Positions 3,224 through 55,189 of a stretch of 64,000 nt of DNA are shown one piece after another (within the stretch, counting starts at the first letter, position 1; every line of letters begins with the position of its first letter). Origin of the DNA: Candidatus Woesearchaeota archaeon (GTDB taxonomy: Archaea; Nanobdellota; Nanobdellia; Pacearchaeales; GW2011-AR1); contig CAZUTV010000001.1 in NCBI GenBank assembly GCA_964623495.1, forward strand, positions 44,682 through 108,681, in the 5' to 3' direction. The notes under the pieces are model-generated. The model did no database searches, was not told where the DNA came from, and was given only the letters and a program-made list of their open reading frames with translations. Position numbers and translations under genes: made by a program.

Positions 3224-3679
3224 CTAGCCATTTTTTTTGAAAATCCATAAGCCAATAGCTAAAATTATCGCAATAAAGACTTGAATTTCAATTCCCCCAA
3301 AAGGAAGGCTTGCAAACGAAAACCCTATTCCCAAAGCACTAAAAATCATGGGAAACAAGCCAGTAACGCACAAAGGGCACACCCCAACAATTAATCCTCC
3401 CAAAGTTCCAACCCCCGCTGTTGCAACTGCTTTTCTGCATTTTTGCCTTTCTTTATATTTAACAAAAGCCGTTACAGCATTAATGGAAACTAGAATCCCG
3501 ATGACTAGAGTTAAAATTATCGAAATTCCAAGTTTAAGCCAGTTGACTGTGTCCGCATAAATTATAAACGACTTAATAGTGTTGTAAAAACCGCTAAAAA
3601 TAACATTCAAAATTATATAAACAATAAAAATTAAAAAAATCCAATAAATATATGGTTTTTTGAAAATTTTCATAATCAC
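3224..3679 (-). CDS. 4-TM membrane protein with CPLC motif (putative metal/thiol handling)
   Basis: GVCPLCVTG inside a TM helix; hydrophobic profile. Confidence 0.45.
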   Translation of the reverse strand: MIMKIFKKPYIYWIFLIFIVYIILNVIFSGFYNTIKSFIIYADTVNWLKLGISIILTLVIGILVSINAVTAFVKYKERQKCRKAVATAGVGTLGGLIVGVCPLCVTGLFPMIFSALGIGFSFASLPFGGIEIQVFIAIILAIGLWIFKKNG

Positions 3680-4074
3680 TCAACGATCAGCTTTCCAGAA
3701 CCCATTCCCATGGAGCACATAAAGACATAAGTTCCTTTTTCTTCAGGCGTAAATTCTACATAATCTTTTGGTGTTGGCAGTTGTTTGCTGATTCCTAGGG
3801 CCCTTATATTAAAACTTCTATAACATCCGTAAACACTCTTATCTAGGTAAATTCTTACAGGCAAACCGGCCTTTACAGTTACGGTATTAGGGTAATAATT
3901 AAAATTCTGCATGCTTAAGACAATTTCCTGAACATTTCCATCCACTATTCCCCCGTTTCCAGAAGGTTTCAAATCTTCGTTTCCTTGCCCGCTAACAAAA
4001 ATAAAGTATCCTAATACTACCACCGCAATTACCACTATGAAAAGCGTTATCTTCTTCATCCTCCGCAGCCACAC
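3676..4074 (-). CDS. secreted cupredoxin-like domain protein
   Basis: Signal anchor, then beta-rich domain ending FMCSMGMGSGKLIV (Cys/Met ligand pattern of cupredoxin-like Cu proteins). Confidence 0.55.
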   Translation of the reverse strand: MWLRRMKKITLFIVVIAVVVLGYFIFVSGQGNEDLKPSGNGGIVDGNVQEIVLSMQNFNYYPNTVTVKAGLPVRIYLDKSVYGCYRSFNIRALGISKQLPTPKDYVEFTPEEKGTYVFMCSMGMGSGKLIVE

Positions 4075-4526
4075 CCTCCGCCATTCGCCATTCCGCAGCT
4101 TGATCCGGTTTGGGTTTTTTGTTCAACGTAAGCTGGTTTTGTGCCGTCATTCTCCAGAACAGTAAAAGACCCTTGGTACATGTTCATTGAGCATGCTATA
4201 TTGAAAGTTCCTGCTTTATTTGGAGTAAATTCTATTACATTATCTGAGCTAGATAAGCTCTTTCTTATATTAAATGCAGAGATAACAACCGATTTAGAAC
4301 AACCAGGCATTTTGCTTATATCTGCTTCTATTCTTACAGGAGTATCTTTCTTGATTGTTGAAGGACTTAAGATATAGTTTCCTCCTTCGACAGAGAGCTT
4401 GACAATCTGCACATTTTCATTTGCAATAACATTCCCTGTTGTTGCGCTTCCTGAATTTGTGAATACAAATACTGCAGCCACTAAAACAATCATTCCTATT
4501 CCAATAATTGCTGTTTTGTTTTTCAT
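4056..4526 (-). CDS. secreted cupredoxin-like protein with C-terminal Cys/Gly tail
   Basis: Paralogue of 3676-4074 (IACSMNMYQGSFTV); tail SSCGMANGGGCGCGG; overlaps the downstream gene by 19 nt. Confidence 0.55.
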   Translation of the reverse strand: MKNKTAIIGIGMIVLVAAVFVFTNSGSATTGNVIANENVQIVKLSVEGGNYILSPSTIKKDTPVRIEADISKMPGCSKSVVISAFNIRKSLSSSDNVIEFTPNKAGTFNIACSMNMYQGSFTVLENDGTKPAYVEQKTQTGSSCGMANGGGCGCGG

Positions 4527-9187: not shown

Positions 9188-11797
9188 ATGACTACAATCC
9201 TTCAAGCGCAAAAACACACAGCCAAAGAAACAGAAAAAATCCTTCACCCTCTTGTAAAAGAATGGTTCTTTAATAAATTCAAGGATTTTTCTCTTACCCA
9301 GGAGTACGGAGTTCTAAATATCTGGGAAAGAAAGAATATTCTTATCTCAGCCCCAACAGGAGGAACAAAAACACTTACAGCCTTTTTATCAATACTTAAT
9401 TATTTGGTTATAAAAGCAGAAAAGCACGAGCTAGAAGATAAAATATATGCGGTCTATACTTCCCCCCTTAAAGCATTATCCAATGATATTGCAAAGAATC
9501 TTATTGAACCTCTAGGTGAGATAAATGAATTAGCCAAATCAAAAAGCATTAATCTTCAACAAATTAGAGTCACCCTCAGGACAGGTGACACAACAACAGC
9601 TGAAAGAGCAAAGATGGCTAAGAAATCTCCGCATATCTTTATAACCACCCCCGAATCCCTAGCAATTATCCTCACATCAAAGAACTTTGTTGAAAAACTA
9701 AGAGAAACAGAATTCTGCATTGTTGATGAAATTCATGCCTTAGACAACAAGCGAGGAGCATACTTAAGTTTAACTTTAGAGAGATTAAATGAAGTAGCAA
9801 AAGACTTCCCGTGTAAAATAGGATTAAGTGCGACAATAGCTCCTTTAGAAGAAGTTGCAAAATACTTAGTAGGTATTGCAAAAGATAGAGTTGTTAGTAT
9901 TGCAGAAGTTCCTTTAGATAAAAAAGTAGATGTTCAAGTACTTTCTCCAGCAAAAAACCTTCTTGAAGACATTGGCTTACATCATAAGATGTACGAGTTA
10001 ATCTCTAAATTAATTAAAGAGCATAAAACCACCTTAATTTTTACAAATACGCGATCAGCAACAGAAAGAGTTGTTAACTACCTCAAAGAAAAGTTTCCAA
10101 CAGAATACGGGGATGATAATATTGCCGCCCATCATTCTTCGTTGAGTAAAGGCCATCGATTCAATATAGAAGAACGTTTAAGGCAAGGTAAATTAAATGT
10201 GGTTGTTTGCTCCACTTCTTTAGAGTTGGGTATTGACATCGGGTTTATTGACCTGGTTATAATGCTTGGCTCCCCAAAATCAAGTGCAAGAGCCCTTCAG
10301 AGATTAGGAAGAGCCGGACACAAACTCCACGATACTGCTAAAGGAAGATTCATTATCTTAGACAGAGATGATTTAGTAGAATGTTGCATAATCCAGAAAG
10401 AAATGATTGAAAGAAAAATAAACAAGATATATTTTCCCAGAAACTGTTTAGATGTTCTAAGCCAACAGATATACGGAATGGCCATATACAAAATTTGGGA
10501 TATTGATGAACTTCTAAGTACTATAAGAAAGAGTTATTGCTTTGCAGAACTTGTAAAAAATGACTTTATGGATGTTATAGCTTACTTATCAGGCGAGTAT
10601 GCTTTGGAAGATTCAAGAGTTTATGGAAAAATATGGTATGATAAGGAAACAAAACAAATAGGGAAAAAAGGAAAGTTAGCAAGAGTTTTATATATGACTA
10701 ATATAGGAACAATCCCTGAAGAATCTTTTATAACCGTTAAAATTTCTGGAAGTGAAGAACAAGTTGGGTTTGTAGACGAAGGATTTATGGAAAGAATGAA
10801 AAAAGGAGATGTATTTGTCCTTGGAGGAAAGAAATATATCTATGGTTATACCCGGGGAATGAATTTATATGTTAGGCCGACAGTTAGTAGATCTCCAACC
10901 ATTCCCTCTTGGTTTAGTGAAATGCTTCCTCTTTCATTTGACTCTGCTTTAGAGCTTCAAAAGTTCAGAAAATTAATGTCAGACAAGCTCTTATCTTCGA
11001 GACAGCCCAAGACAAAAACAATAGAATTCATAAAAGAACATTTGTATGTTCCACAAGATACTGCAGAGGCAATATACAATTATTTCTTAGAACAGCACAG
11101 CTTCCTGGAAATTCCAAACGAATCCAAAATCATAATTGAAAAATATACCGATAACAACAAGAGATACCTTATCTTTCATACCTTATATGGCAGAAGAGTA
11201 AATGACGCTTTATCAAGGTCAATTGGTTATCTTATCGGGGTTTATGGCGGAAGAGATATTGAATTGGGAATTAATGATAACGGGTTTTATCTTGCAGGAG
11301 AAAACATGATGCTTAAAAAATCTCTTGAACAATTGAATGAAAAAAATATAGAAAAACTGTTAAAAGAAGCTATAGAAAAAACAGATGTGCTGGCTAGAAG
11401 GTTTAGGCACTGTGCAACACGTTCATTGATGATCCTAAGATCTTACAAAGGATTAAGAAAGACAGTAGGAAAACAGCACATGAAATCCCATTTCCTTTTA
11501 GCTGCAGTAAAAAAGATCACTGGCGAATTTCCAATATTAAGAGAAGCCAGAAGAGAAGTTCTTGAAGACCTAATGGACATTGAAAATGCAAAGCTCGTAT
11601 TGTCTTGGATAAAAAAAGGCAAAGTAGAAGTAGAAATCAAAGAAACAGATCTTCCAAGCCCCTTTGCTCTCAATTTAATCTTGCAAGGCCACAGCGATTT
11701 AATAAAAATAGAAGACAAGCAAGCATTCTTGAAAAGAATGCACGAAATGCACATGAAGAAGATTTTGGGAACTAAAATAATTTCCCAAAACATATAA
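9188..11797 (+). CDS. lhr: Lhr-core type ATP-dependent DEXH helicase
   Basis: APTGGTKTL (Walker A), DEIHAL (DExH), helicase C motifs, about 870 aa with an Lhr-like C-terminal domain. Confidence 0.85.
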   Translation: MTTILQAQKHTAKETEKILHPLVKEWFFNKFKDFSLTQEYGVLNIWERKNILISAPTGGTKTLTAFLSILNYLVIKAEKHELEDKIYAVYTSPLKALSNDIAKNLIEPLGEINELAKSKSINLQQIRVTLRTGDTTTAERAKMAKKSPHIFITTPESLAIILTSKNFVEKLRETEFCIVDEIHALDNKRGAYLSLTLERLNEVAKDFPCKIGLSATIAPLEEVAKYLVGIAKDRVVSIAEVPLDKKVDVQVLSPAKNLLEDIGLHHKMYELISKLIKEHKTTLIFTNTRSATERVVNYLKEKFPTEYGDDNIAAHHSSLSKGHRFNIEERLRQGKLNVVVCSTSLELGIDIGFIDLVIMLGSPKSSARALQRLGRAGHKLHDTAKGRFIILDRDDLVECCIIQKEMIERKINKIYFPRNCLDVLSQQIYGMAIYKIWDIDELLSTIRKSYCFAELVKNDFMDVIAYLSGEYALEDSRVYGKIWYDKETKQIGKKGKLARVLYMTNIGTIPEESFITVKISGSEEQVGFVDEGFMERMKKGDVFVLGGKKYIYGYTRGMNLYVRPTVSRSPTIPSWFSEMLPLSFDSALELQKFRKLMSDKLLSSRQPKTKTIEFIKEHLYVPQDTAEAIYNYFLEQHSFLEIPNESKIIIEKYTDNNKRYLIFHTLYGRRVNDALSRSIGYLIGVYGGRDIELGINDNGFYLAGENMMLKKSLEQLNEKNIEKLLKEAIEKTDVLARRFRHCATRSLMILRSYKGLRKTVGKQHMKSHFLLAAVKKITGEFPILREARREVLEDLMDIENAKLVLSWIKKGKVEVEIKETDLPSPFALNLILQGHSDLIKIEDKQAFLKRMHEMHMKKILGTKIISQNI

Positions 11798-37405: not shown

Positions 37406-38818
37406 ATGGTTGAAATAAAGAGTGTGGCAGACATAATAAAAGAAATCTCCCCATACTATAAGGAAAAGGGCGGACCAGAAGCAGAACATAAGCTTGTTTA
37501 TGACTCAAGCTCTGAAACTCTCGAGCCAGTTTACTTTTATATCATTGACTTAATGAATGATCTAGGGTTTAAAATTGAAAAACTAGTTGATAACTTTTCT
37601 TCTTCTGTGGGTTCTGGCCATTTTTCAGAACTTGGCCAAAGAGCAACAATTATGCAGCAGCAAGGAGCAAAAATTCTTGGTGATGTCAATACGGTTCTAA
37701 GATCTGTATTAAATATTGTATACGATTTAAAGGAATTCAGAATAAGACTTCAAACCTACGACGACTTGAAATCAAAAGATAAAAAGAAATCAGAAGGTGC
37801 AAAATACTCGCTAAAACAAATCTGGATGGATAAGGTTGATATTAACAAGGGAAATTCAAGCATAAAGGCAATGGCTCTCGGGCAGGCAGGATTTCAAACT
37901 CTAATAGACGCATTTCTAATTGTTAATGACGAAAAACTTAAGGGGCCTGATGGAAAAGAACTTGATCTGAATGACAGAGTTAAAAGAATAGTCCAGCAGA
38001 GAATTTCAGAATACAATATCTGGATTAAACAATCAGAGATGGAATTAAGAAAAAGATTTGAATTAGAGAAAACCTACCTTAAAAGCCAGGTCAATGCCCT
38101 AAAACTTTACACAAGATGGGCCAAACCCTACTTAAAAGCCGCTTCTCAGCTAGAAACAAAAGACTTTGGGAGAGATCCTGCACTAGTCAAGGTTTTCAAC
38201 ACCCTTCTCCTTGAACTAACACTTCTTGGAGCCAGGGAAATAAAAGTCAAAGAATCTGCCCTTGAAGGGGATCTTCCAAGAGAATTCACTAGAGAAGGAT
38301 TCATAAAGTCCTTGAAGAGAAAATACCATGTGTGTGTTTTGGTTGATTTTGTTTTTAGGGGGATTCCGCAAAGAGCAGGCCAGCAATTCCATTATGTTTT
38401 TGGAGGAAAAGTGGATGTTATTTTTAGAGGTTATGTTTTAAACGATGATGAGATAAATAAGATTAAGGAAGTTTTGGACAAATCAGACCTCTCAACAGCC
38501 CTATCTTTAGTTGAAGGGACCACAGAAGAAAGTCTTTCCCAAATTGAAGAAGAAATAAACTTTTATTTGGAAGAAAGAGATGAAAGTAAAGAAGAGAAGA
38601 GCGATGAGTCAAATCCTTTTCTGGCATTGTTTGGATTCTATAATAAGTCAGATTCAAAGTCTTCTGGAAAGAAAGAAAAGAAAGAGATAATCGTAGCCAA
38701 AGACAGCTGGGTTGAAAAAGCCCATCTCAGAAGGCTTGGGTCTGAAAAAGCAGTAGAAGACGCTTTTAAGGTCTTTGAAACCTACAAAAAGTCCCATGAT
38801 ATGCCTGCGTACACTTAA
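37406..38818 (+). CDS. hypothetical 470-aa largely alpha-helical protein
   Basis: ORF; track start 37370 is GTG inside the structured leader; no recognisable motifs. Confidence 0.5.
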   Translation: MVEIKSVADIIKEISPYYKEKGGPEAEHKLVYDSSSETLEPVYFYIIDLMNDLGFKIEKLVDNFSSSVGSGHFSELGQRATIMQQQGAKILGDVNTVLRSVLNIVYDLKEFRIRLQTYDDLKSKDKKKSEGAKYSLKQIWMDKVDINKGNSSIKAMALGQAGFQTLIDAFLIVNDEKLKGPDGKELDLNDRVKRIVQQRISEYNIWIKQSEMELRKRFELEKTYLKSQVNALKLYTRWAKPYLKAASQLETKDFGRDPALVKVFNTLLLELTLLGAREIKVKESALEGDLPREFTREGFIKSLKRKYHVCVLVDFVFRGIPQRAGQQFHYVFGGKVDVIFRGYVLNDDEINKIKEVLDKSDLSTALSLVEGTTEESLSQIEEEINFYLEERDESKEEKSDESNPFLALFGFYNKSDSKSSGKKEKKEIIVAKDSWVEKAHLRRLGSEKAVEDAFKVFETYKKSHDMPAYT

Positions 38819-38846: not shown

Positions 38847-39263
38847 ATGATTTCTATGGCAACAGAAGCATTAGTGGTTAAACTTTCAGCTCCGTTTAGC
38901 AGACACAGGGGAAACTGCCAGTGTCCAAATTTAATGCCCCTCTGGGAGCAAATGGCTGAAACAGACAGAGCAGAAGCAGAGGCCAGAAGATATGCAGAGC
39001 AGTTTGCAGAGAACCCAGAGAAATACAAAAGAGATGTTATTTTTCAAGATGCGCTTATAAGGAGAAGGAGAAGTTTTGAATTGGCGCTTGAACTATACAG
39101 GGATGTTTTTGCACAAGCCGCAAGATCAAAAGGAATAATTTTTGAATCTGGTGGAAGAGTTGTTGAACCAGACATCATCCAAGAAGGCCAGCAATATACT
39201 ATGAACTGCAGCACTTGCAGAACAGAAATTCCTTTTGTGGAATACGAAGGCTGGAACCAGTAA
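38847..39263 (+). CDS. hypothetical protein with CxC...CxxC
   Basis: ORF; GNCQCP and NCSTCRTE. Confidence 0.4.
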   Translation: MISMATEALVVKLSAPFSRHRGNCQCPNLMPLWEQMAETDRAEAEARRYAEQFAENPEKYKRDVIFQDALIRRRRSFELALELYRDVFAQAARSKGIIFESGGRVVEPDIIQEGQQYTMNCSTCRTEIPFVEYEGWNQ

Positions 39264-39293: not shown

Positions 39294-39734
39294 ATGTCTA
39301 TGTACAAAAAAAGAGACATTGATGAGAGGTTAAGAAATCTTGGTGCAACTCCCTTATACAAGGAAGGATGGGATTATGCAGTTACCTATAAGGGCGTGAG
39401 AATTCCAGGGATTAAGGTGACTCATCCGGGCAATGAAATTCCTGACGGTGCTGTAAGCAAGCTTGCAAGAGAAATTGCAGACATAGGAAATCTAAATTCA
39501 AATGATGTTAAAAAGGTCTTGAGGGGGATGCGCCCTTCACTTGACACCGGATTAAATTCGGGGATTTTAACCGCTTCATTTGTCTTGATAATGCTTATAA
39601 TTTCAAGAACAAAAATTCTTACGGGCAATGTAATCGGAAATATTCCTTCTTCTGCCTTAAATGGTTTAATAATCTTAGTTGTCTTTATTATTCTTGGATT
39701 GCTCTTATTAAAATTCAGAAGAGATAACTCTTAA
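39294..39734 (+). CDS. hypothetical protein with two C-terminal TM helices
   Basis: ORF plus hydrophobicity. Confidence 0.4.
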   Translation: MSMYKKRDIDERLRNLGATPLYKEGWDYAVTYKGVRIPGIKVTHPGNEIPDGAVSKLAREIADIGNLNSNDVKKVLRGMRPSLDTGLNSGILTASFVLIMLIISRTKILTGNVIGNIPSSALNGLIILVVFIILGLLLLKFRRDNS

Positions 39735-39768: not shown

Positions 39769-40365
39769 ATGGAAAAAACCAGCAAGCCAGCCAAAAAATC
39801 AAGCAAAATTCAAAAAACTCTTGGAAAAGTCAAGTTCAAGGAAATAATCATTCCTCTTGAGAAATCTGAAAAAAAGGAATTAGAACCTCCCAGGAAGGAT
39901 TCTGGCTTGGAGGAAGAAATTATTGAAGCAGAGGAAATAATAGATTCCCGGCAATTTCAGAAATTTTTAACAGCGTCCGGCTCCCCAACCTTAGAAAGTA
40001 TAGGAGGATCCCAGCAGCAAAGAGTAAGATTTGTTAGAAGCGAAAGGTCCGAAAGAGATCTAGATAACGATTCCTTAAAATACGATCAGGGCGGAAAAGA
40101 TTATTTTTCTCCAAATCAGGCAGATCCTGGATCTGGAAAAAGAGATTACTCTATGATAAGCGAAGCTCAGCCTTTAAGAGGAAATGATAATACTAGCAGA
40201 TTTTTGCTAAAGCCTGAAGCGCCAATGTCAGATAGGATAGAAAATCAGGCGCCATATCCTGAGATGGGAAGGCCAATAATGAATCCGGAATTTGCGCAAA
40301 ATAGAACAAAGCTCCCTTTTGAAATGGCCAAGGAAGATAAAAAATATAAAGAAGCTAGATTTTAG
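39769..40365 (+). CDS. hypothetical low-complexity / disordered protein
   Basis: ORF; Lys-rich N-terminus; Pro/Glu/Arg-rich C-terminus. Confidence 0.4.
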   Translation: MEKTSKPAKKSSKIQKTLGKVKFKEIIIPLEKSEKKELEPPRKDSGLEEEIIEAEEIIDSRQFQKFLTASGSPTLESIGGSQQQRVRFVRSERSERDLDNDSLKYDQGGKDYFSPNQADPGSGKRDYSMISEAQPLRGNDNTSRFLLKPEAPMSDRIENQAPYPEMGRPIMNPEFAQNRTKLPFEMAKEDKKYKEARF

Positions 40366-40399
40366 ATAGGTTAATAAATAAAAAATCCGTATTTTGTTT

Positions 40400-42160
40400 A
40401 TGGGAAAAGGGGAATACACAATTAAAAATTTTTATTCTGGAGGATACTCTAGTTTTAGCCCTAGTTATGGAAGTTCTTTTACAGGATATAGGACATCAGC
40501 ACAACATTTGGGTATGGCCACTGATGCAAGAACGGCAAATGTTTTAAAAGAAGTTTCTGAAAATTTATCTGCTGGAGCTAAAACCGTTGAATTAAACCAA
40601 GTTTTTCCGGAAGTTTTTGAATCAATCCCAAAAGATCAATTAAAAGAAGTAAATAGGCTTGCAAAACTAACCGGAGTAGATGTCACACTTCATGCGCCTT
40701 TAGTTGAACCTTCTGGTATGACAAAAGACGGGTTTACAGAAGCAGGAAGAGAATCTGCTGAAAGACAAATGAATCTTGCAATAGAAAGGGGGCACGAAAT
40801 AAATCCTAAAGGAAATGTTAATATAACCTTCCACTCTTCGGTTCTTCTCCCAGGACAGATAAAACCAAAAGGAAGAGAAGTTCCAGAAACATTTGTTATA
40901 AATTCGGAATCGGGCTCGGTACAAAAACTGCCCTTGAAAGAAAGAAAGTTTCCTGGAGAAGCACAGCAGCCAAACATCAAAGAAGAGGTGACTAAGATCA
41001 ATGAAGAGGTTTGGAAGCAGCAACTGACCCATCTGGCCTACAATATAGAAAGAGCAAGTGAACTTATAAGGTCTTCGGGATATCTGGCCCTAACAGCCGA
41101 AGCCGAAGAAAAAGCCGGAGAAAAATTATATCCCCAGGAAAAACAGGCAAAAAACGCCTTTAATGTTGGAACAGCTTTTCTGCAAGATTCTTATAGAGAG
41201 CTTAAAGCCCTTTACGATTTAGCATATAAAAACGCAACCGAAGAAGAAAAAAATATGCTGTTGGATTTAGGAAATAAAATTAAGGAAAGGGTGGAAGTAA
41301 TAAAAAAAGAGCCGGATAGCCGTAAAAGCATAATGTTAAGACAGGAAATTGTTGAAGATGGTCTTGCCACCCTAACCAAGATCTCCATTCCAGAGATATA
41401 CAAATCCCTAAATGATTTTGCCAAAGAAAAAACAACAGAAACATTTGCAAACGCAGCCCTTAATTCATATAAAAAATTCAAAGAAAGCACCCCCATAATA
41501 AGTATTGAAAATCCCCCTGCAGGAGGAGCATTCAGCACAGCAGAGGAATTAAAAGAAATTATAGAAAAATCTAGAGAAAAGTTTGTCAAAAAAGCTGTCG
41601 AGTCAGGAATTTCTGAATCAACTGCAAAAGAGCAGGCTGAAAAAATAATCGGAGCTACATGGGATGTCGGCCACATAAACATGCTTAGGAAATACGGCTA
41701 TGAAGGTAAAGACATTGTAAAAGAATCCGAGAAGATAGCACCCTTCTTAAAACACGTCCATCTTTCTGACAACTTTGGCTTAGAGCACACAGAATTGCCT
41801 ATGGGAATGGGAAATGTACCAATAAAAGAAATAATGGAGAAATTTGACGAAGAGGGCTTCAAAGGAAAAAAAATAATCGAAGCGATGCACTGGTGGCAGC
41901 ATTTTTCTCCTGGCGGAAAAACAAATCCTCCGTTGCAGGTAACTTTAGAGGCTTTTGGGTCTCCAATTTATTCTTCTGAATCCGGGCCTTACTGGAATCA
42001 ATCCCCTGGTCTAATACAAAATTATTATAGTGGTTATGGCCAGTTTCTTCCTGATGTTAACTACCAAACCTTTGGTGCAGGATTCTCACAGCTGCCTGCA
42101 GAACTCGGAGGACAAAGGCCAGGCCAAGGTAGTAGAATGAGCGGAAGAGGAATGGAATAA
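40400..42160 (+). CDS. xylose-isomerase-like TIM-barrel (sugar-phosphate isomerase/AP-endonuclease-2 family) split by a long coiled-coil insert, with Gly/Tyr/Ser-rich termini
   Basis: N-half TVELNQVF...VDVTLHAP; C-half KHVHLSDNFGLEHTELPMGMGNVPIKEI...GKKIIEAMH is the family metal-site motif; about 250-aa helical insert between halves; track start 40394 is TTG. Confidence 0.5.
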   Translation: MGKGEYTIKNFYSGGYSSFSPSYGSSFTGYRTSAQHLGMATDARTANVLKEVSENLSAGAKTVELNQVFPEVFESIPKDQLKEVNRLAKLTGVDVTLHAPLVEPSGMTKDGFTEAGRESAERQMNLAIERGHEINPKGNVNITFHSSVLLPGQIKPKGREVPETFVINSESGSVQKLPLKERKFPGEAQQPNIKEEVTKINEEVWKQQLTHLAYNIERASELIRSSGYLALTAEAEEKAGEKLYPQEKQAKNAFNVGTAFLQDSYRELKALYDLAYKNATEEEKNMLLDLGNKIKERVEVIKKEPDSRKSIMLRQEIVEDGLATLTKISIPEIYKSLNDFAKEKTTETFANAALNSYKKFKESTPIISIENPPAGGAFSTAEELKEIIEKSREKFVKKAVESGISESTAKEQAEKIIGATWDVGHINMLRKYGYEGKDIVKESEKIAPFLKHVHLSDNFGLEHTELPMGMGNVPIKEIMEKFDEEGFKGKKIIEAMHWWQHFSPGGKTNPPLQVTLEAFGSPIYSSESGPYWNQSPGLIQNYYSGYGQFLPDVNYQTFGAGFSQLPAELGGQRPGQGSRMSGRGME

Positions 42161-42206: not shown

Positions 42207-43196
42207 ATGGTTAAGAAAAAAAGAGGGAAAAAATCAAAGACGATACGAAAGCTTCCTAATTTAGATGATTTAAGCAAGAAAACAGAAAAGGAAAAGACAG
42301 TTGAAAGCCAAGAAAAAAAACCCATTTCTTCAAAAACCTTCAAAAAACCAAAGATTCATCTAAAACAGGAAAAGCCTAAGAAAAATTTAAATCCAAAAAA
42401 CTTTCCAAGTCTGCAGCTTAAGTCAGAGCATGATATTGCAATGGATTTTGCAGTTAAGGTCTATAAGAGATTTGACAAAATTATCAAGTCTGTTGTTCTT
42501 TTTGGCTCGACAGTAAAGCAGTCTGCTGTTGCAGGTTCAGACATTGACATTATAATAATCATAGATGATGTTGCAATAAAATGGGATCAGGAGCTTATTG
42601 CCTGGTACAGGGAAGAGCTCGAGAAAATTTTGCAAGTCAACCCTTATAAGTATGCATTGCACATAAACACAGTCAAGTTAAGCACCTGGTGGGAAGATGT
42701 AAGCAGAGGGGATCCTGTAGTTATAAATGTCTTAAGGCATGGTGAACCGATGCTGGATTATGCAGGATTCTTTGAGCCTTTAAAATATCTTTTGCTACAG
42801 GGAAAAATCCGACCTTCACCGGAAACAATTTACATATCTCTTCAAAGAGCCCCAACCCATTTAGCAAGAAGCAAAGCATCTGTATTGAGTGCAGTAGAAG
42901 GATTGTATTGGGCAATGGTTGATTCAGCTCATGCCGCCTTGATTGCAGCAAATATCCTTCCTCCTTCTCCAGAGCATCTTGCAATTGATTTAAGGGAGCA
43001 GTTTGTAAATGAAGGAAAATTAAACATGAAATATGTTGTCTGGTACAGAGACTTGCTAATGCTCCACAAAAAAATCAATCACGGAGAAATAAGGGACGTT
43101 AAAGGCTCTGATATTGACGCCTGGTATGACAGAACAAAAGAATTCATTGACGTCATGGCAAATTTAGTTAAAAATATTGTTGATAAGCAAGATTAA
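42207..43196 (+). CDS. Pol-beta-superfamily nucleotidyltransferase with C-terminal helical domain and Lys-rich N-terminal extension
   Basis: VLFGSTVKQSAVAGSDIDIIIIIDD (GS...DxD); paralogous to 47163-48968 (shared RPSPE region). Confidence 0.6.
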   Translation: MVKKKRGKKSKTIRKLPNLDDLSKKTEKEKTVESQEKKPISSKTFKKPKIHLKQEKPKKNLNPKNFPSLQLKSEHDIAMDFAVKVYKRFDKIIKSVVLFGSTVKQSAVAGSDIDIIIIIDDVAIKWDQELIAWYREELEKILQVNPYKYALHINTVKLSTWWEDVSRGDPVVINVLRHGEPMLDYAGFFEPLKYLLLQGKIRPSPETIYISLQRAPTHLARSKASVLSAVEGLYWAMVDSAHAALIAANILPPSPEHLAIDLREQFVNEGKLNMKYVVWYRDLLMLHKKINHGEIRDVKGSDIDAWYDRTKEFIDVMANLVKNIVDKQD

Positions 43197-43940: not shown

Positions 43941-44519
43941 TTAAAGTTTAGATGCTAAGTTCTTAAGCTCTTGCATTCTTGTGGTATCAACTGCATCAGG
44001 TCTTAAAGATTCATAGCTGTATCTGTCAAGTGTCTGCATTACATCCATAACATCCTTGTATCTGGCTATGGTTTCCTTAGCTTCAGCAATTTGGTCATTG
44101 CTGAACAAGCCCTTTGGAGCTTTCTTGTCAGTCATGTACTTTGCTTTGGCATATTTCTCTCTTATAGACTTGATAGTTTCATCATGTCTATTCAATGCGC
44201 CAACAATCTTGTCTCTGTCTCCAGATTCAAGACCTCCTAAAGCAGAGCCATACCAATCAACTAACTCAGAAGGTTTATATTCTCCTCTCTTCTCTTCGAA
44301 TTTAGATGCATAAACTGCTATTGCAGTAGTTACACCATCTTCAGAAGCCTGAGTACCCCTGATAAAACCTTCAGCATCTTCTCCTAAGTTAAGGCCTTTT
44401 GCACCTGCAAGTACTTCTAAAGCACCCGGAGCATATCTTCCGCCATCTTCAGTTGAAGCTAAATAAGCGGCAGCTGCACCATACTGGTATCTTTTAAAGT
44501 CTGTTCTTTGGTCAGGCAT
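43941..44519 (-). CDS. hypothetical soluble protein
   Basis: ORF with a strong promoter-like motif upstream and T-rich terminator downstream. Confidence 0.45.
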   Translation of the reverse strand: MPDQRTDFKRYQYGAAAAYLASTEDGGRYAPGALEVLAGAKGLNLGEDAEGFIRGTQASEDGVTTAIAVYASKFEEKRGEYKPSELVDWYGSALGGLESGDRDKIVGALNRHDETIKSIREKYAKAKYMTDKKAPKGLFSNDQIAEAKETIARYKDVMDVMQTLDRYSYESLRPDAVDTTRMQELKNLASKL

Positions 44520-45900: not shown

Positions 45901-46998
45901 TTATCTATTCTCTAAAACAATGATTTCTCGTCCGACAATATTAGATTCCCTATATTCTTTAATTGGAAATCCCTTGACAATTTTAAGCCCGGTATTCTTA
46001 GCTATTTTCTCAAGGTTGCATGAAACCCTGGTTTTTCCGGTTTTTATCAAAGGAAGAGTAAACACAATTCTCCCAGAAACACTTTTCTTAAGATTGTTTA
46101 AAACAGAAACCATTAACCCTTCAAATCCCCTTAACATTTTATTGGCTTCTTCTAAAGAAGGAACATGCCTAAGAACTCTCCCCAAATCAGGTTCTGTAAC
46201 CACACCATCGACTTTGCCTATATCTACTTTCCTAGAGTCACCAGTAATAATAGAATACCTCTCTGAATTAAACCTCTTAAATTTCAAATTTTCCAGACAC
46301 CCTTTGATTGCTTCTTCATCTTTGTCAATTCCTACCACTCTAATCTCCTGCATCAAAGCCTCTATTAGTATCGCTCCTATGCCGCAAAAAGGATCTAATA
46401 AAATCTCTTTTTCTTTGACTAAAGACAGGTTTATCATTATCTTTGCTAGCCTAGGGGAGATAGAAAGCTCTTCTCTTCTTACCGGCTTTTCCATATCTCT
46501 TTCTTCCAGCTCCTTGTAATCACAATTTTGAATAATTCTTCCAAAAAGATCCTCAAAAACAAAAAACTCTTCATTAATTAATCCAGAAGCGATTCTTACC
46601 CTCTCTCCTGACTGCAATTCCATTGAGCCATTAAGGTTTTTTTCTGTTGCCTTTAACTCTTCTTGCTTGAATCTTTTTTTAAGATAGCCTGAAACTTTAT
46701 CATAATTCTTATCTGAGAAATTCCAAAGAACATAATTAAGCTTATTACTGGCCCCGTTGTAAATAACAGCTTTATCTAGCTCAACATCTCTGGTACCACA
46801 TAAACCCTCCCCTATTGCAATAACACCGCCAAGCCTATCGATTGCATTATTCTTTAATTTATTATCAATTTCCACTAAAAAACCATTACTCTTCAAATTA
46901 AAGCCCAGTATTTTATGCCCCTCCTTTTTCAGATAGCAAAAAACTTCCTGCTTTGAAAGCTCGGGATTTCTTCCTAGAATGAACAAGTATTGTGGCAT
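45901..46998 (-). CDS. THUMP-domain tRNA (guanine-N2)-methyltransferase (Trm11/Trm14 family)
   Basis: LDPFCGIGAILIEA SAM-binding motif of the UPF0020 MTase family after an N-terminal THUMP-like region. Confidence 0.7.
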   Translation of the reverse strand: MPQYLFILGRNPELSKQEVFCYLKKEGHKILGFNLKSNGFLVEIDNKLKNNAIDRLGGVIAIGEGLCGTRDVELDKAVIYNGASNKLNYVLWNFSDKNYDKVSGYLKKRFKQEELKATEKNLNGSMELQSGERVRIASGLINEEFFVFEDLFGRIIQNCDYKELEERDMEKPVRREELSISPRLAKIMINLSLVKEKEILLDPFCGIGAILIEALMQEIRVVGIDKDEEAIKGCLENLKFKRFNSERYSIITGDSRKVDIGKVDGVVTEPDLGRVLRHVPSLEEANKMLRGFEGLMVSVLNNLKKSVSGRIVFTLPLIKTGKTRVSCNLEKIAKNTGLKIVKGFPIKEYRESNIVGREIIVLENR

Positions 46999-47162: not shown

Positions 47163-48968
47163 TTACAAAACAATTTCAAATTCTCCAAACTCTTTTTTTA
47201 TAAGGTCAAATAGTTTAGGATTAACTGCAAGATCTTTCCTTGTCTTTTGGTGCTCCATGGCCTCAGAAACTTCTTTCATATTTGAGGTTTCTATCTTGTC
47301 TGTTATTTTTTTAATTTCATTACCAATAAACAAAAAGCAGTTTCCTCCGGAAATCAAGAGTTCGGCAGTCCTGTCCTTAAAGATTATCTTCATCCTTCCC
47401 TTTTCAACACCCAATAGATCCTTTCTCTGAGAGAAATCAATAAGATCGTTCATAAGGATTGCAGATCCTTTTCTTACATCATCTGCTTTCTGCAGGCTTA
47501 GCTTCGCTTTCTTTGACTCTGTCTTGGCAGCAACTATCTCTTTAAGAATTCTTAGGTGTTGCTGCGTAAACTTGCCTTTCTTAACAAGCTTATTTTCAAA
47601 CTCATGCACAATATCCTGCTGTGAATTCTTTCCAGTAACTATCTTCAAAAGCTCAAAAACATCCTTATACACTTGATCTATGGTTTTTTCCTGCGCCTGC
47701 TTTTCAATCTGATCTCTTAACTCCTTAAGTCTTTTAAGATAATCCTCTGTATCTTTAAGCAGCTTATCAATTTCTTTTCCAGAAACTTCCTTTATCTTCT
47801 CGTGTTCATATCCCTTATAATACTTAATTGTAATCTCTTCAAGAATGTCAATGTATTTTTTTTCAAGCATCTTTTCCTTGTCAACAAAAACCCTCTTCAT
47901 TTCCTTAAAAGTTTCTTTTGTTGTTGGGGGAGGCATCCCATACAGCATTAACAAAGCCTGGCTTGGGGTTATAACACTCCAGTAAATATCCAATAACAGA
48001 ATATCCATTAAAGCCTTCTTAGCTCTCTTAATTGTGTTGTCTCCTGCAGACATGAACATGTCAATAGCTTCTGGAGAAGGTTTAAGCTTCCCCATTTTTA
48101 ATAATGCTTTCCATGGCATAAAGGTAGCTCGATCATAAAGAGGAACTCCGTCTCTTATAAATGTAAAAATAACCGGATGGGCATCCTTGACACTCTCCCA
48201 AAAGTCAGTCAAAAGATAAACTTGGATGTTAAGCATGTTGTTTTTGACTCCTGCAAGAGCAGCAGCCTCTGTCACATACTGGCCGACAATCATGCTCCTA
48301 AGCCTTTCCTTTAATTCAAGTCTTGGCATTCTCTTAACATCAGTATCATTAATGACAACAAAAACATCAACATCAGAGCTTTTTACAGTATCTCCTCTTA
48401 CAAAGCTTCCTGCAATAACGTAGCTTACAACATACTTGTCAAATTTCCTTAAAACAAGGGATTTGTGTATTTCAGCAACTCTTAAGCCTTGAAGTATTCC
48501 GGTATCATGAATTGGAAGAGACATTGCAATGGCGCCGATAAGCTCGAATTTGCTGTCAAAACAGATCTCCCATAAATCCACAGGAGTCTTAATCTGAAGC
48601 CAGATCTTTTGCTTAAGCTTTTCCTGCGTCAATTCAACTTGTTTAATGATTTCCTGCTTTATCTTTGGAATATTCTTAAATTGTTCTTCAGGAACCACCA
48701 TATACAAATGCAGGTATTTTTCAGTTTCCTTAGGAACTTCTTCCTCCTCAATAAAAAACTTAATTGCCTGGTTGTGAAGAATGCTTATGGATTGTGTGAA
48801 AGGATATTTTTTAACAATAAATCCTTTCAACTTATCCAGCTCTTTTCTTGTTTTCTCCATCTCTTTCTGCAGTTTTTCCTGATCGGGAGGCAATATATTT
48901 TTAGAACTATATTTATTATCCAGATTCATTTCAGGAATGTCTTGAGGAGAGTTATCATTCGAGGACAT
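47163..48968 (-). CDS. Pol-beta-superfamily nucleotidyltransferase with N- and C-terminal coiled-coil extensions (paralogue of 42207-43196)
   Basis: VIAGSFVRGDTVKSSDVDVFVVINDTD; shared downstream region PWKALLKMGKLKPSPEAI. Confidence 0.6.
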   Translation of the reverse strand: MSSNDNSPQDIPEMNLDNKYSSKNILPPDQEKLQKEMEKTRKELDKLKGFIVKKYPFTQSISILHNQAIKFFIEEEEVPKETEKYLHLYMVVPEEQFKNIPKIKQEIIKQVELTQEKLKQKIWLQIKTPVDLWEICFDSKFELIGAIAMSLPIHDTGILQGLRVAEIHKSLVLRKFDKYVVSYVIAGSFVRGDTVKSSDVDVFVVINDTDVKRMPRLELKERLRSMIVGQYVTEAAALAGVKNNMLNIQVYLLTDFWESVKDAHPVIFTFIRDGVPLYDRATFMPWKALLKMGKLKPSPEAIDMFMSAGDNTIKRAKKALMDILLLDIYWSVITPSQALLMLYGMPPPTTKETFKEMKRVFVDKEKMLEKKYIDILEEITIKYYKGYEHEKIKEVSGKEIDKLLKDTEDYLKRLKELRDQIEKQAQEKTIDQVYKDVFELLKIVTGKNSQQDIVHEFENKLVKKGKFTQQHLRILKEIVAAKTESKKAKLSLQKADDVRKGSAILMNDLIDFSQRKDLLGVEKGRMKIIFKDRTAELLISGGNCFLFIGNEIKKITDKIETSNMKEVSEAMEHQKTRKDLAVNPKLFDLIKKEFGEFEIVL

Positions 48969-51187: not shown

Positions 51188-52180
51188 CTAAGGAGTTAAT
51201 ATTCTACTAACCTGATATTTAATGTGATGCCTTACTGGTTCTGTGTCATCAATCCTAAACCACGATTGCATTCCAAAAACTCCCGAATGATGTATGTCTA
51301 TTTCTGTAAAATAAATATAATCTATGCAGGATTTTGTCATTACCGGAACGTCCTGTATTCTGAGCTCATCAATATTGACAAAACTCTCAATGCCGTTAGG
51401 ATCCGAAGAAAGATCTCCTTCAAGCCTTTTCAGAAAGCTCGGGGCATAAGTATTCTCCGCATAATATCCTTTATTAACGTGATCTTTTAGATTTGTAACA
51501 TCTCCTAACTCAGTCACATAATTTTCCTCATAAAAAGTTTTAGTTATCTTCCTCGATACTCTCCCTCCAGTATTCACAACAAACAAAGGATCTTCGAACT
51601 CAGTTATTGGAATATATGCAGAGATTACTTGCCTTTTGTCCCACCTAGCAAGACCTTCTTTATCTTCCATCACAAAATCAGAAATAAGGGAGAACTTAAC
51701 ATGCCACGGATCATCCTGGCTTACATTTATTATAGAATTGCTTATGTTAACCCGGACATTAATTTTCGCAGCATTTCTGTTTATAGAATCAAGAACATCT
51801 GCATAAGTCACTCCCTGAATGAGGCTTATATTTGCTTCTCCTTTAACTGTACCATTAAAAAATGCTTCGCTGAAAAAAGTATCTACATCAATATAATCCC
51901 CGGAAACCGCAATCTCGTTCTCTGCTACAAGAAGAATCCTAAACCCAGAAATATAAACTTGTCTTTCTAGATTCTTTTCCATTGAAAAAAGAAAATTATC
52001 CATTGTAGAAACTCTGGTAGTTATAGAATTTTTTTCCTTTACTAGGGAAAATATTTCAAAAGAAGCAAACATAAGCAAAATGAGTAGTATAGCAATTCCC
52101 GTAAAAAATTGGGATTTTTTATTTTGAATTAAATTGAATTTCATCATTTCCATGTCCTCACCTGAACTTCTGTCTCCCAC
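51188..52180 (-). CDS. pilus-locus membrane-anchored hypothetical protein
   Basis: N-terminal TM then extracytoplasmic domain; start may be the internal MKFNL. Confidence 0.45.
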   Translation of the reverse strand: MGDRSSGEDMEMMKFNLIQNKKSQFFTGIAILLILLMFASFEIFSLVKEKNSITTRVSTMDNFLFSMEKNLERQVYISGFRILLVAENEIAVSGDYIDVDTFFSEAFFNGTVKGEANISLIQGVTYADVLDSINRNAAKINVRVNISNSIINVSQDDPWHVKFSLISDFVMEDKEGLARWDKRQVISAYIPITEFEDPLFVVNTGGRVSRKITKTFYEENYVTELGDVTNLKDHVNKGYYAENTYAPSFLKRLEGDLSSDPNGIESFVNIDELRIQDVPVMTKSCIDYIYFTEIDIHHSGVFGMQSWFRIDDTEPVRHHIKYQVSRILTP

Positions 52181-54741
52181 GCAAACGGAATTCCAGAAAC
52201 CTCGACAGAATTTATTGAAAGATCGTTCTCCGAGAACTTAGTTTCAATCTTGCCATTTAAATTAAGATCCATTTCCTGCAAAAGCTTAAAGACAGCATTG
52301 TTAATAGCATCATTTTCATCATAAGACTGTAATGACGAAGTATAAGAGCAACTGCCTGAACCAGAATAATTTGATGGAACTTTAAAAGTAGAGGTGGTCC
52401 CATCTTCAAATTCCACTTCCCATTCACATCCGTTAGCAAATGGAAGTATGGCAGTGTAAGAAGAAATTTCTTTTAAAACCGAGTAAATAACTTTGTTGTA
52501 AGGTGATCCTGCGCTAGCGTTAAAGGGATTCAGACCAACACCCACCCTTACAGAATTATTTCCCACATTAATAAGCGATGGAGGGATATTAACCATATAC
52601 GGATCTCCAAGTTTAGTAAAATTAACCCCATACTCTCCAAGATCAAAAATATTATCCCAGGTTCCGGTCACATTATTATATTTCTCAACCTTGCTCGTCC
52701 ACTTTGATCCAGAATAAGAAACAACCTTTGCGTCATAAGGGGCTGTATCATTTGGAACAAAGAAACTTCCTTGTGAAAGATTATTGTTAAATTCAGGGGT
52801 TTCTGAAACAACAACCAACCCGTATGGAATGCTTTCTTTATAGCTTATATTAATATATGAATCTGGATAAAGCCGCGTATTTATTCCTTCCCCGACAATT
52901 GTTTGTTCTACATAGGCTGCCTGAATAACATCGCTGGCAACCTGCCTATAAATGCTTTCTAGCTGGCTTACATTCACGAAATAATAGTTTCCGTGCCCGC
53001 AATTAGCGATATCTTCCATAACCTGCCGATTAATATTGCTCCCAAATCCAATTGCATAAACTTTTATAGAATAATTATTATATGCTGCACAGGCCGCATT
53101 AACTGCCCATTGTTGATCAAGAGCATCACTTATTCCCCCAGACCAATCACCTCTAGACCCTGAGCCGCTATAATCTGTATAACTATTACAATAATAGGTA
53201 GGTGCTCCATCACTCATAACAACTATCGACCTTGATTTGCTTGAATTTGACTGCGTTGCAAGCATATTTACGGCCCTATTAATACCGCAGCAAATACAGG
53301 TTCCTCCTGTTGCACTCCAAGAATCGACTTCTGCTTTAAGGCTGACATTATTAGTAGAAAGGGCATGCGTGTTTGAAAGAAGGGCGCTTGTGCTGTATGC
53401 TGCAAGACCAACCCTATTAATTGAAGAATTAAGAACAATATCCACAAATAACTTTGTTGCGTTCTTTGATTCCCCGATCTTATCTTCATAAATTCCGCCG
53501 CACTCTCCGCATCTTGTTGCATTATTAACACACCAACCACAACTAGAATTACAGCAAGAACTTCTCCCACAAGTAACCCCGCTGCATGTCGATGCCATGC
53601 TTCCGCTTATATCGTTAGTGGAAATAACATCTGCGGGCAGAGTAACATTAAAAGTATAAGAAGCATTTACAAACCCAACCCTAAAAGGAATGGTTTTGTC
53701 TTCAAGAGTCGAATAATCCAACAAGGAGGATAAATAGGCGTTATCAAGGCTAATATTTACAATTTGCCCGCTGCTATTCCCCTGATAAACAGTTTTATTT
53801 CCTATCATAAAAAATATGTCGTAAGAGCTGTTATAACGAAGTAGAGATTCTATTCTTGTTATTGTAGAGGGAATATAAAAACTATCGTATAAATTTATAA
53901 GCCCATCAATGCCTGGAAAATTTTTTCTCCCGTTAAGATAAGGAACGTTGGAATAAATTATCTTAATAAATCCTCCAGCAACGTAAAGTGTGCCATTGAA
54001 AGATTTAAATTCGAAATAATTGTCTCCACTAACAAAGTTCGAGGAATAAGGAGATAAATCTATTTTATACGGAACATTTGGATTAGGATTAAAAACCCCA
54101 ACATTCACATTATTTATAGATAGATTAAATGGTCTAGAAAAAACTCCTTCGATGTTTCCATCAATAATCTCCCCAGTAATTTTTACAGTTATATTTCCAT
54201 CACCGACATAACCACCAAAATAAAAATAATCTACTTTATTTGCAGAAGACAAAAATGCTCTTGCAGAATAGCCTTTTGTTGCGTTCCCCTGTTGAATCCC
54301 GCTGATTATCTGCCTGGAGGTATAAATTGTATCTGCATCATTATACGGACTTACTTCGGACTTTGCAATCTCGGTGTTTCCAAAATACAATCCGAGGTTT
54401 TTGCTTAGATTCAAGCCATCAAGTATAGAATCGGCAAGCATATTTGCTGCAGCATCGTTATTGGCGTAAAATTCTCCGAGTTGATCAAGAACAGACTGAT
54501 TAAGGTTAGTGATATTTCCAGAAGCAATTAACTGTTTTGCATATGAATTGTCTATTTCTCCGATTTTAATTGAAGAAAGAGAGATTATAAGGTCTTCTTG
54601 CAGATGTGTCTCGTACTGAACTTGAGAATGCTGTGGTTTTATAAAAAGAACGACCCCAAGAATCAGCAGCAGAGCTATCAAAGCATCCACGCTGAAATAG
54701 TAGGCTTTTTTATTTTTTTTAAAATTTAGCATTTTAGTCAT
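52144..54741 (-). CDS. large pilin-like adhesin with von Willebrand factor A domain
   Basis: Class-III-like N-terminus KKAYYFSVDALIALLLILGVVL; MIDAS DISGSM and IVVMSDGAPT; many Cys; about 865 aa. Confidence 0.65.
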   Translation of the reverse strand: MTKMLNFKKNKKAYYFSVDALIALLLILGVVLFIKPQHSQVQYETHLQEDLIISLSSIKIGEIDNSYAKQLIASGNITNLNQSVLDQLGEFYANNDAAANMLADSILDGLNLSKNLGLYFGNTEIAKSEVSPYNDADTIYTSRQIISGIQQGNATKGYSARAFLSSANKVDYFYFGGYVGDGNITVKITGEIIDGNIEGVFSRPFNLSINNVNVGVFNPNPNVPYKIDLSPYSSNFVSGDNYFEFKSFNGTLYVAGGFIKIIYSNVPYLNGRKNFPGIDGLINLYDSFYIPSTITRIESLLRYNSSYDIFFMIGNKTVYQGNSSGQIVNISLDNAYLSSLLDYSTLEDKTIPFRVGFVNASYTFNVTLPADVISTNDISGSMASTCSGVTCGRSSCCNSSCGWCVNNATRCGECGGIYEDKIGESKNATKLFVDIVLNSSINRVGLAAYSTSALLSNTHALSTNNVSLKAEVDSWSATGGTCICCGINRAVNMLATQSNSSKSRSIVVMSDGAPTYYCNSYTDYSGSGSRGDWSGGISDALDQQWAVNAACAAYNNYSIKVYAIGFGSNINRQVMEDIANCGHGNYYFVNVSQLESIYRQVASDVIQAAYVEQTIVGEGINTRLYPDSYINISYKESIPYGLVVVSETPEFNNNLSQGSFFVPNDTAPYDAKVVSYSGSKWTSKVEKYNNVTGTWDNIFDLGEYGVNFTKLGDPYMVNIPPSLINVGNNSVRVGVGLNPFNASAGSPYNKVIYSVLKEISSYTAILPFANGCEWEVEFEDGTTSTFKVPSNYSGSGSCSYTSSLQSYDENDAINNAVFKLLQEMDLNLNGKIETKFSENDLSINSVEVSGIPFAWETEVQVRTWK

Positions 54742-55189
54742 AAAGATAAAGATTAAATTTAGAGGGTTTATTTTTGTAAAGAACAATTCTCGTAACCTGA
54801 ACAAGATTTTCTACTTCTCCTGGGCCGGCTAAACCGACATGACTCTCTGGATTTCCTTGAATTGTCAGATTCTGAATGGTGAAATAAAAATGATTTCTAG
54901 ATCCAACAAAATTCTTCAAGCCAGAATAATTAAGGTATACTTCATCCAGCTTTGATTGATTAACCTGATTTTCATTTAGAATTCCGAATTCCCCTTCGCT
55001 TAGTATAAGATCTGCTGCAAGGTTCCCCTCATAAAAGAGCTCATCTAATTTGTTCTTTGATTGGGACGAGTAATTTACTGCATAAACATAGAGTATAACT
55101 ATCCCGGAGATAAATATTACGCTTGCTATAACCAAGTCAAAACTCCAGGTTTGTGCTCTTTTGTTTTTAATTGAGGTAAACGCTTCCAT
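54734..55189 (-). CDS. minor pilin-like protein (class III signal peptide)
   Basis: KRAQTWSFDLVIASVIFISGIVIL. Confidence 0.55.
   Translation of the reverse strand: MEAFTSIKNKRAQTWSFDLVIASVIFISGIVILYVYAVNYSSQSKNKLDELFYEGNLAADLILSEGEFGILNENQVNQSKLDEVYLNYSGLKNFVGSRNHFYFTIQNLTIQGNPESHVGLAGPGEVENLVQVTRIVLYKNKPSKFNLYLYD

Follow-up and report, generated by a model that had tools for sequence, protein, structure and literature searches.

How an enzyme fold interrupted by a long insert and flanked by glycine- and tyrosine-rich tails should be read, as a working enzyme or as something built from one, is the question raised by a plus-strand gene at positions 40400 to 42160 of a 64,000-nucleotide stretch of contig CAZUTV010000001.1 (assembly GCA_964623495.1) from a Candidatus Woesearchaeota archaeon. 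This whole stretch is referred to as the window and the gene as the barrel gene. An earlier note, made from the letters of this DNA, had described a xylose-isomerase-like triose-phosphate isomerase (TIM) barrel split by a coiled coil and capped by prion-like ends, and had considered an enzyme fold converted into a scaffold. The analysis described here favours, with somewhat better than even confidence, the reading that the barrel gene codes for a single metal-dependent (beta/alpha)8 enzyme that is catalytically competent, belongs to the MJ1311/endonuclease-IV corner of the superfamily and is specific to Pacearchaeota/Woesearchaeota (GTDB Nanoarchaeota).

Few uncultured archaea are as widespread as Pacearchaeota and Woesearchaeota, and the majority of the proteins specific to these lineages have not been given a function (PMC8204110). 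In public gene calls the product is named 'sugar phosphate isomerase/epimerase', a name that appears to mislabel the protein or, at best, to label it vaguely. The literature searched on DPANN archaea held nothing specific to this family; the fold and the probable chemistry are familiar, and the lineage-wide enzyme module had previously been unstudied. The barrel gene is part of a lineage-wide same-strand cluster, B - E - TIM - NTase, since the genes called B and E and a nucleotidyltransferase (NTase) recur around it in related loci.

Fold and probable metal centre of the barrel protein

The window is archaeal, with about 35% G+C, and ribosomal protein L10e is encoded 2.5 kb downstream of the barrel gene. 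The latter lies in a single unbroken open reading frame (ORF) at 40394-42160 (+), 588 codons counted from TTG 40394. Public gene calls start two codons later, at ATG 40400, a start that agrees with the homologues, whose N-termini read MA..GDY. Residue numbers are counted from 40394 and not from the ATG, and the codon positions were verified.

40400..42160, + strand: whole barrel gene, 586 residues from ATG 40400; stop codon 42158-42160
40499..40843, + strand: barrel N-half, residues 36-150, beta1-beta4, from secondary structure (model) and a Pfam stretch; invariant E66, H100 and H147
41408..41953, + strand: barrel C-half, residues 339-520, alpha4-alpha8, from Pfam, model and ligand counts; E372, D424, H427, H456, H465, E467 and E496

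Pfam PF01261 (AP_endonuc_2, xylose isomerase-like TIM barrel) matches the protein in two stretches (E=1.7e-15, 57.9 bits against a cutoff of 31.1 bits) and is carried by all listed homologues. An AlphaFold2 model built on a 121-sequence alignment reached a mean predicted local distance difference test score (pLDDT) of 80.6 and a predicted template modelling score of 0.78. Eight strands are predicted in it (39-42, 64-68, 96-100, 143-147, 368-372, 419-424, 452-457 and 492-495), low confidence is confined to residues 1-35, 523-567 and 575-588, and the complete (beta/alpha)8 barrel is superposable on solved members of the superfamily. In the model, therefore, both halves form one barrel around the insert, which is what the structure prediction proposed in the earlier note was meant to reveal, and the split barrel is also visible in the two Pfam stretches. 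The halves had been put at about 100 and 150 residues; they measure about 115 (36-150) and about 180 (339-520), with mean pairwise identities across the family of 0.48 and 0.54, respectively.

The barrel protein is a genuine xylose-isomerase-like TIM-barrel protein, and its closest relative is MJ1311 of Methanocaldococcus jannaschii (PDB 3WQO). MJ1311 is the sole solved protein found by sequence (E=6e-6, residues 411-496). The similarity is significant in the C-half only, and the 293-residue MJ1311, described as a 'D-tagatose 3-epimerase-like protein', has neither the insert nor the Tyr/Gly tails and comes from another lineage and another genomic context. Its HAP motif aligns with the barrel protein (VVHAP paired with TLHAP). 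The 2014 study by Uechi et al. is said to have found that MJ1311 keeps all nine endonuclease IV ligands and that the DNA groove is missing. MJ1311 has been predicted to be the endonuclease IV homologue of M. jannaschii (Kiyonari et al., 2009, PMC2770678), and the barrel family could illuminate the function of the MJ1311 family.

The trinuclear site of Escherichia coli endonuclease IV is formed by H69, H109, E145, D179, H182, H216, D229, H231 and E261. All nine positions are, on alignment and model, occupied in the barrel family by invariant or chemically equivalent candidate ligands, namely H100, H147, E372, D424, H427, H456, [H/D]465, [E/H]467 and E496. Their codons, together with that of E66, are located as follows.

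40589-40591, + strand: E66, barrel N-half
40691-40693, + strand: H100, end of beta3
40832-40834, + strand: H147, end of beta4
41507-41509, + strand: E372, end of beta5
41663-41665, + strand: D424, barrel C-half
41672-41674, + strand: H427, barrel C-half
41759-41761, + strand: H456, barrel C-half
41786-41788, + strand: H465, barrel C-half
41792-41794, + strand: E467, barrel C-half
41879-41881, + strand: E496, barrel C-half

Conservation was counted over 252 full-length members. H100, H147, E372, D424, D459 and E496 occur in every one of them, H456 in 251 and H427 in 248, and E66 is likewise invariant. Within the block HVHLSDN...E...G.G, which the earlier note had recognised as a surviving metal-ligand signature, invariance is complete or almost complete at H454, H456, D459, N460, G471 and G473. 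Positions 465 and 467 covary across the family: H and E are paired in 152 members, among them the window protein, and D and H in 79, which looks like a compensated swap in a putative third metal site. In the second combination, D465-x-H467 corresponds to D229-R-H231 of endonuclease IV and to D-E-H of MJ1311 once the invariant G-x-G-N-[VI] motifs are aligned without gaps.

The six endonuclease IV ligand positions of the C-half were paired by hhalign and by this motif register: WDVGH aligns with IDTCH (D179, H182), HVHLSDN with GMHLNDA (H216) and IIEA with LILET (E261). The three counted with the N-half were assigned from the strand order of the model, in which H100, H147 and E372 stand at the C-terminal ends of beta3, beta4 and beta5, as do H69, H109 and E145 in endonuclease IV. 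The Glu-Asp-His-Glu tetrad (E372, D424, H456, E496; strands beta5-beta8) is present in 251-252 of the members. Nine invariant ligand positions, one pair of them apparently swapped in a compensated manner, argue strongly for a working multinuclear metalloenzyme and therefore against a dead scaffold. The conversion of the enzyme fold into a scaffold finds no support in positions that are all invariant or conservatively exchanged. The metal centre of such an enzyme would be multinuclear and probably trinuclear.

Inserted domain and terminal extensions

Three parts of the protein lie outside the barrel, one within its sequence and two at its ends.

40844..41407, + strand: inserted domain in the beta4-alpha4 loop, residues 151-338 (AlphaFold2, pLDDT mostly above 85)
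40394..40498, + strand: N-terminal extension (N-tail), residues 1-35, G/S/Y/F-rich, predicted disordered, pLDDT below 50
40433-40462, + strand: motif copy 1 (strict), YSGGYSSFSP, N-tail
41954..42157, + strand: C-terminal extension (C-tail), residues 521-588, predicted disordered yet conserved to the last residue
42023-42052, + strand: loose motif copy, YYSGYGQFLP, C-tail
42071-42097, + strand: strict motif copy, FGAGFSQLP, C-tail, followed by ELGGQ...SRMSGRGME

In the AlphaFold2 model the insert consists of a beta-hairpin (165-180) and helices at 195-240, 247-280, 283-305 and 310-327 (46, 34, 23 and 18 residues). It lies between beta4, which ends at H147, and the helix 339-365 that precedes beta5, a position that would put it on the catalytic face of the barrel. 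The span from H147 to E372 is 225 residues compared with 36 from H109 to E145 in E. coli endonuclease IV, so the net insert amounts to about 190 residues. It is always present in the family, evolves fast and varies in length (213-294 residues between H147 and P367), and no other part of the protein is so little conserved (mean pairwise identities of 0.29 for the hairpin and 0.22 for the helical insert). In a crude Fourier test of helices 195-240, 247-280 and 310-327, no 3.5-residue hydrophobic periodicity stood out as dominant, and weak profile matches to designed antiparallel helical bundles were not significant. A helical domain is thus supported, and a heptad coiled coil is not shown. The coiled-coil insert of about 250 residues first proposed stands as a helical insert, smaller and with no heptads shown, and homologues with the same insertion, which the earlier note had suggested looking for, are found across the family at full length. 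The domain might serve as a lid, help to select the substrate or make contacts in a dimer. In MJ1311, the beta4-alpha4 loop reportedly (Uechi et al. in 2014) reaches over the metal site of the partner subunit.

The tails have the composition expected of low-complexity regions: G/S/Y/F/Q/N/P account for 71% of each, aromatics for 16-26%, and the minimum-entropy window of the whole protein (2.3 bits) falls in the N-tail. Their sequence is conserved as well. The N-tail consensus YQGGYSSLxPxYGxxFTGYR persists even in homologues with 33% identity, and the C-tail ends in ...ELGGQ..G.GSR[MF]SGxPME even in members with 33-40% overall identity. Mean pairwise identity is 0.35 for the N-tail and 0.52 for the C-tail, compared with 0.54 for the barrel C-half. 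Both tails carry the motif [YFW]-x-[GA]-G-[YFW]-[ST]-x-[LFMI]-x(0,1)-P, or in short form [YF]xGG[YF]SxLP. Counted in its strict form, the motif is found in 123/252 N-tails and 143/252 C-tails. None of the 252 has it outside the tails, and composition-preserving shuffles yielded none. In the six frames of the window it is present at 40433-40462 and 42071-42097 only, and the 103 copies present in 1.12 Mb of related loci all lie inside the barrel gene.

Prion-like domains conserve composition rather than sequence, and the criterion used here was composition conserved without sequence, typically over some 60 or more residues of degenerate repeats. The tails resemble FUS-like or prion-like domains in being G/S/Y-rich, in bearing aromatic 'stickers' and in their predicted disorder; unlike these domains, they are short (35 and 68 residues), keep their sequence site by site throughout a phylum-level lineage, and are built around a defined repeated motif. 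Because of this conservation and this motif they are not classed as prion-like: the biased composition and disorder noted earlier hold, and the FUS/prion-like designation does not. Their pattern of conservation fits short linear docking motifs that would fold only upon binding, and the partner may be another subunit, or B or E. The case calls for caution, since tails that are 'prion-like' in composition can be strictly conserved linear motifs. Inspection by eye found no PCNA-binding PIP box in the tails. The ELGGQ of the C-tail was also considered as a ubiquitin/Pup-like processing site and dropped for want of support.

Competing readings of the function

The leading guess for the chemistry is that the enzyme would hydrolyse a phosphoester rather than isomerise a sugar, because nine ligand positions are invariant while ketose epimerases are not known to need more than the tetrad. 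The alternative, which keeps closest to the public annotation, is a sugar or sugar-phosphate isomerase/epimerase of the D-tagatose/D-psicose 3-epimerase type, with a single Mn or Co ion in the E-D-H-E tetrad and the insert as a substrate lid. Ketose 3-epimerases and sugar isomerases (D-tagatose/D-allulose 3-epimerase, IolI, xylose isomerase) do share PF01261, the fold and the tetrad with the barrel protein. The barrel protein adds to the PF01261 epimerases five conserved ligand positions, the 190-residue beta4-alpha4 insert and the conserved tails. The equivalents of H100, H147, H427, 465 and 467 are not known to be part of the epimerase site, and in the barrel family these extra residues are invariant or covary and match the endonuclease IV/MJ1311 pattern. 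No epimerase family model reached its cutoff; among the curated epimerase/isomerase equivalogs of NCBIfam the best was fructoselysine 3-epimerase (E=0.0025, 17.4 bits compared with a required 305). The gene also sits among translation genes, and in best local alignments its conservation roughly matches that of the housekeeping genes nearby (best tblastn segments: 48% identity for the barrel protein, 63% for L10e and 58% for GluRS), although its hosts belong to a lineage considered metabolically minimal (PMC8204110). Taken together, an epimerase is considered rather unlikely.

A mainly structural barrel, with the insert as an oligomerising coiled coil and the Y/G/S-rich termini serving FUS-like phase separation or scaffolding, would account for the composition and predicted disorder of the tails, for the three aromatic 'sticker' motifs per chain and for the long helices of the insert. 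Aromatic motifs are conserved in B and E too, within segments that have low confidence or look like low complexity. This reading is improbable given that the active-site ligands are invariant, that tail conservation goes beyond composition (and the N-tail has just 35 residues), and that the insert showed no heptad periodicity, is confidently modelled within the monomer and is the least conserved region. Still less credit is given to a protein- or peptide-directed metalloenzyme, either an MNIO/DUF692-like modifier of its own Tyr/Gly tails or of E, or an eraser of tyrosyl-nucleotide phosphodiesters written by the adjacent nucleotidyltransferase: MNIO matches ranked under every isomerase and nuclease match, the MntA match of the neighbour is generic to minimal nucleotidyltransferases, and no direct link joins the tails to the active site. 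An artefact, in which two adjacent genes were fused by a frameshift or the motifs matched by chance, has a negligible probability. The ORF is single, full-length homologues occur family-wide, the full-length architecture is common to more than 250 clusters at 50% identity, and both versions of the artefact are refuted because the same five-part layout is kept in alignments down to 33% identity.

Several observations weigh against a metal-dependent enzyme of the MJ1311/endonuclease-IV type with docking tails. The similarity to endonuclease IV is not significant in hhalign (E=0.07-0.08, with the N-half misaligned), and no NCBIfam nfo model matches at E<=0.1. The equivalence of H100/H147/E372 with H69/H109/E145 is positional, derived from strand order and strand-end position in the model. 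MJ1311, the closest solved relative, is itself without known function. With a median charge of -9 the protein is acidic overall, and its sequence has no basic region, so nucleic-acid binding by the insert or the tails finds no support. As for the tails, they have low confidence in the AlphaFold2 model, the profile similarity between N-tail and C-tail is weak (hhalign P=0.038), and the motif pattern was written after both tail consensus sequences had been seen.

Endonuclease IV (Nfo/Apn1; PDB 1QTW, 3AAM) has neither insert nor tails, and it differs from the net acidic barrel protein in this respect. The latter is not filed as a member of the endonuclease IV family, because significant similarity and a family-model match were looked for and not found; at the metal centre it plausibly works like endonuclease IV. 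Among 38 ORFs scanned with Pfam, out of 66 of at least 120 residues in a window that is a small part of the genome, there was no canonical nfo or xth gene. Compared with every solved or described member of the superfamily, the 190-residue beta4-alpha4 domain, the conserved motif-bearing tails and the fixed operon partners are new. An MJ1311/endonuclease-IV-type enzyme with a putative lineage-specific lid domain, candidate docking motifs and fixed partners, one of them without a known fold, offers concrete hypotheses and an entry into conserved DPANN cell biology.

Distribution of the family and its gene cluster

A word-indexed search retrieved at least 1792 homologues of the barrel protein, of which the best 120 are 577-606 residues long, with full-length coverage and 55-70% identity; the named sources among these are Pacearchaeota, Nanoarchaeota or Woesearchaeota. 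An exhaustive profile search of 50%-identity representatives gave 869 clusters at E<=1e-3, of which 364 reached E<=1e-30, the best 150 being nearly all full length (590-670 residues). A scan of one genome per species placed relatives in at least 550 species genomes, and the best 80 are all labelled Pace-, Woese- or Nanoarchaeota except for one short contig of a 'Bacillota' metagenome-assembled genome (MAG). Restarting the search from a 36%-identical member led to the same taxa only. Pacearchaeota and Woesearchaeota have in common a module of 51 mostly unknown families (Castelle et al., 2021), of which the barrel family may be one.

Two labels depart from this distribution. One homologue (L033, DATKUW010000032.1) is on the MAG contig labelled 'Bacillota bacterium', with B upstream and the NTase and L10e downstream, and another (P0079) is on a 4-kb contig labelled 'Thermoplasmata archaeon'. 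Both labels are probably binning errors rather than horizontal transfer, in the case of L033 because the archaeal synteny is the same as in other loci. The window protein itself is P0485 in the protein collection, where a 39-residue fragment represents its 90%-identity cluster, which explains why the homology search gave no match above 70% identity.

The conserved genes around the barrel gene in the window, and two additional ORFs, are the following.

37406..38818, + strand: gene B, 470 residues from ATG, conserved upstream partner without Pfam/NCBIfam family or known fold
38847-39263, + strand: extra ORF of 138 residues between B and E
39294-39734, + strand: extra ORF of 146 residues with hydrophobic membrane-like segments, between B and E
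39769..40365, + strand: gene E, about 200 residues, directly upstream of the barrel gene, conserved position
42207..43196, + strand: nucleotidyltransferase (PF01909), minimal NTase domain and helical HEPN-like C-terminal domain

These genes follow each other on one strand with a spacing of 28-46 nucleotides. In related loci, B (about 470 residues) is found upstream on the same strand in about 70 of 83 and the nucleotidyltransferase directly downstream in 74 of 83, with GluRS, L10e and L35Ae flanking the cluster. Most loci have one ORF of about 200 residues between B and the barrel gene. No relatives of ORF E were detected by tblastn; jackhmmer joined it to 57 of 75 ORFs at the same position, scores that its low complexity could inflate. 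E is K/E-rich, with a disordered look from composition, and has the conserved short motifs EFxxF, PVLERIA, F.Y..EPKY and a C-terminal PFE..E.KY..Y[KR]P. The extra ORFs at 38847-39263 and 39294-39734 look like a genome-specific insertion into the conserved cluster, because neither has a counterpart in the 83 related loci.

The nucleotidyltransferase is the most conserved gene of the cluster, being 52-74% identical across loci where the barrel protein is only 43-60% identical. Its N-terminus is Lys-rich and its helical C-terminal domain is probably HEPN-like, as PF18737 HEPN matches this domain in 4 of 17 members; against the PDB, its profile gave generic minimal-NTase matches only. These partners allow a more speculative and unlikely extension of the favoured reading, in which the barrel protein would be the catalytic core of a machine specific to Pacearchaeota/Woesearchaeota. 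An endonuclease-IV-type trinuclear phosphodiesterase would be tethered by three docking motifs per chain to B, E and the MNT/HEPN-like NTase in a higher-order, possibly condensate-like assembly, acting in nucleic-acid end-healing and tailing or in a cycle of tyrosine nucleotidylation and denucleotidylation.

Synteny is also conserved downstream of the cluster. A fast-evolving ORF of about 195 residues (43941-44519, -) lies next to L10e, and most related loci also contain a UPF0020/N6_N4 methyltransferase-like gene (45901-46998, -) and a second NTP_transf_2 protein of 600 residues (47163-48968, -). Elsewhere in the window, and with no connection to the barrel gene, there are an 885-residue VWA-domain protein (52144-54804, -), two adjacent cupredoxin-like ORFs beside a DsbA-like thioredoxin (3676-4526, -) and an Lhr-type helicase (9188-11797, +).

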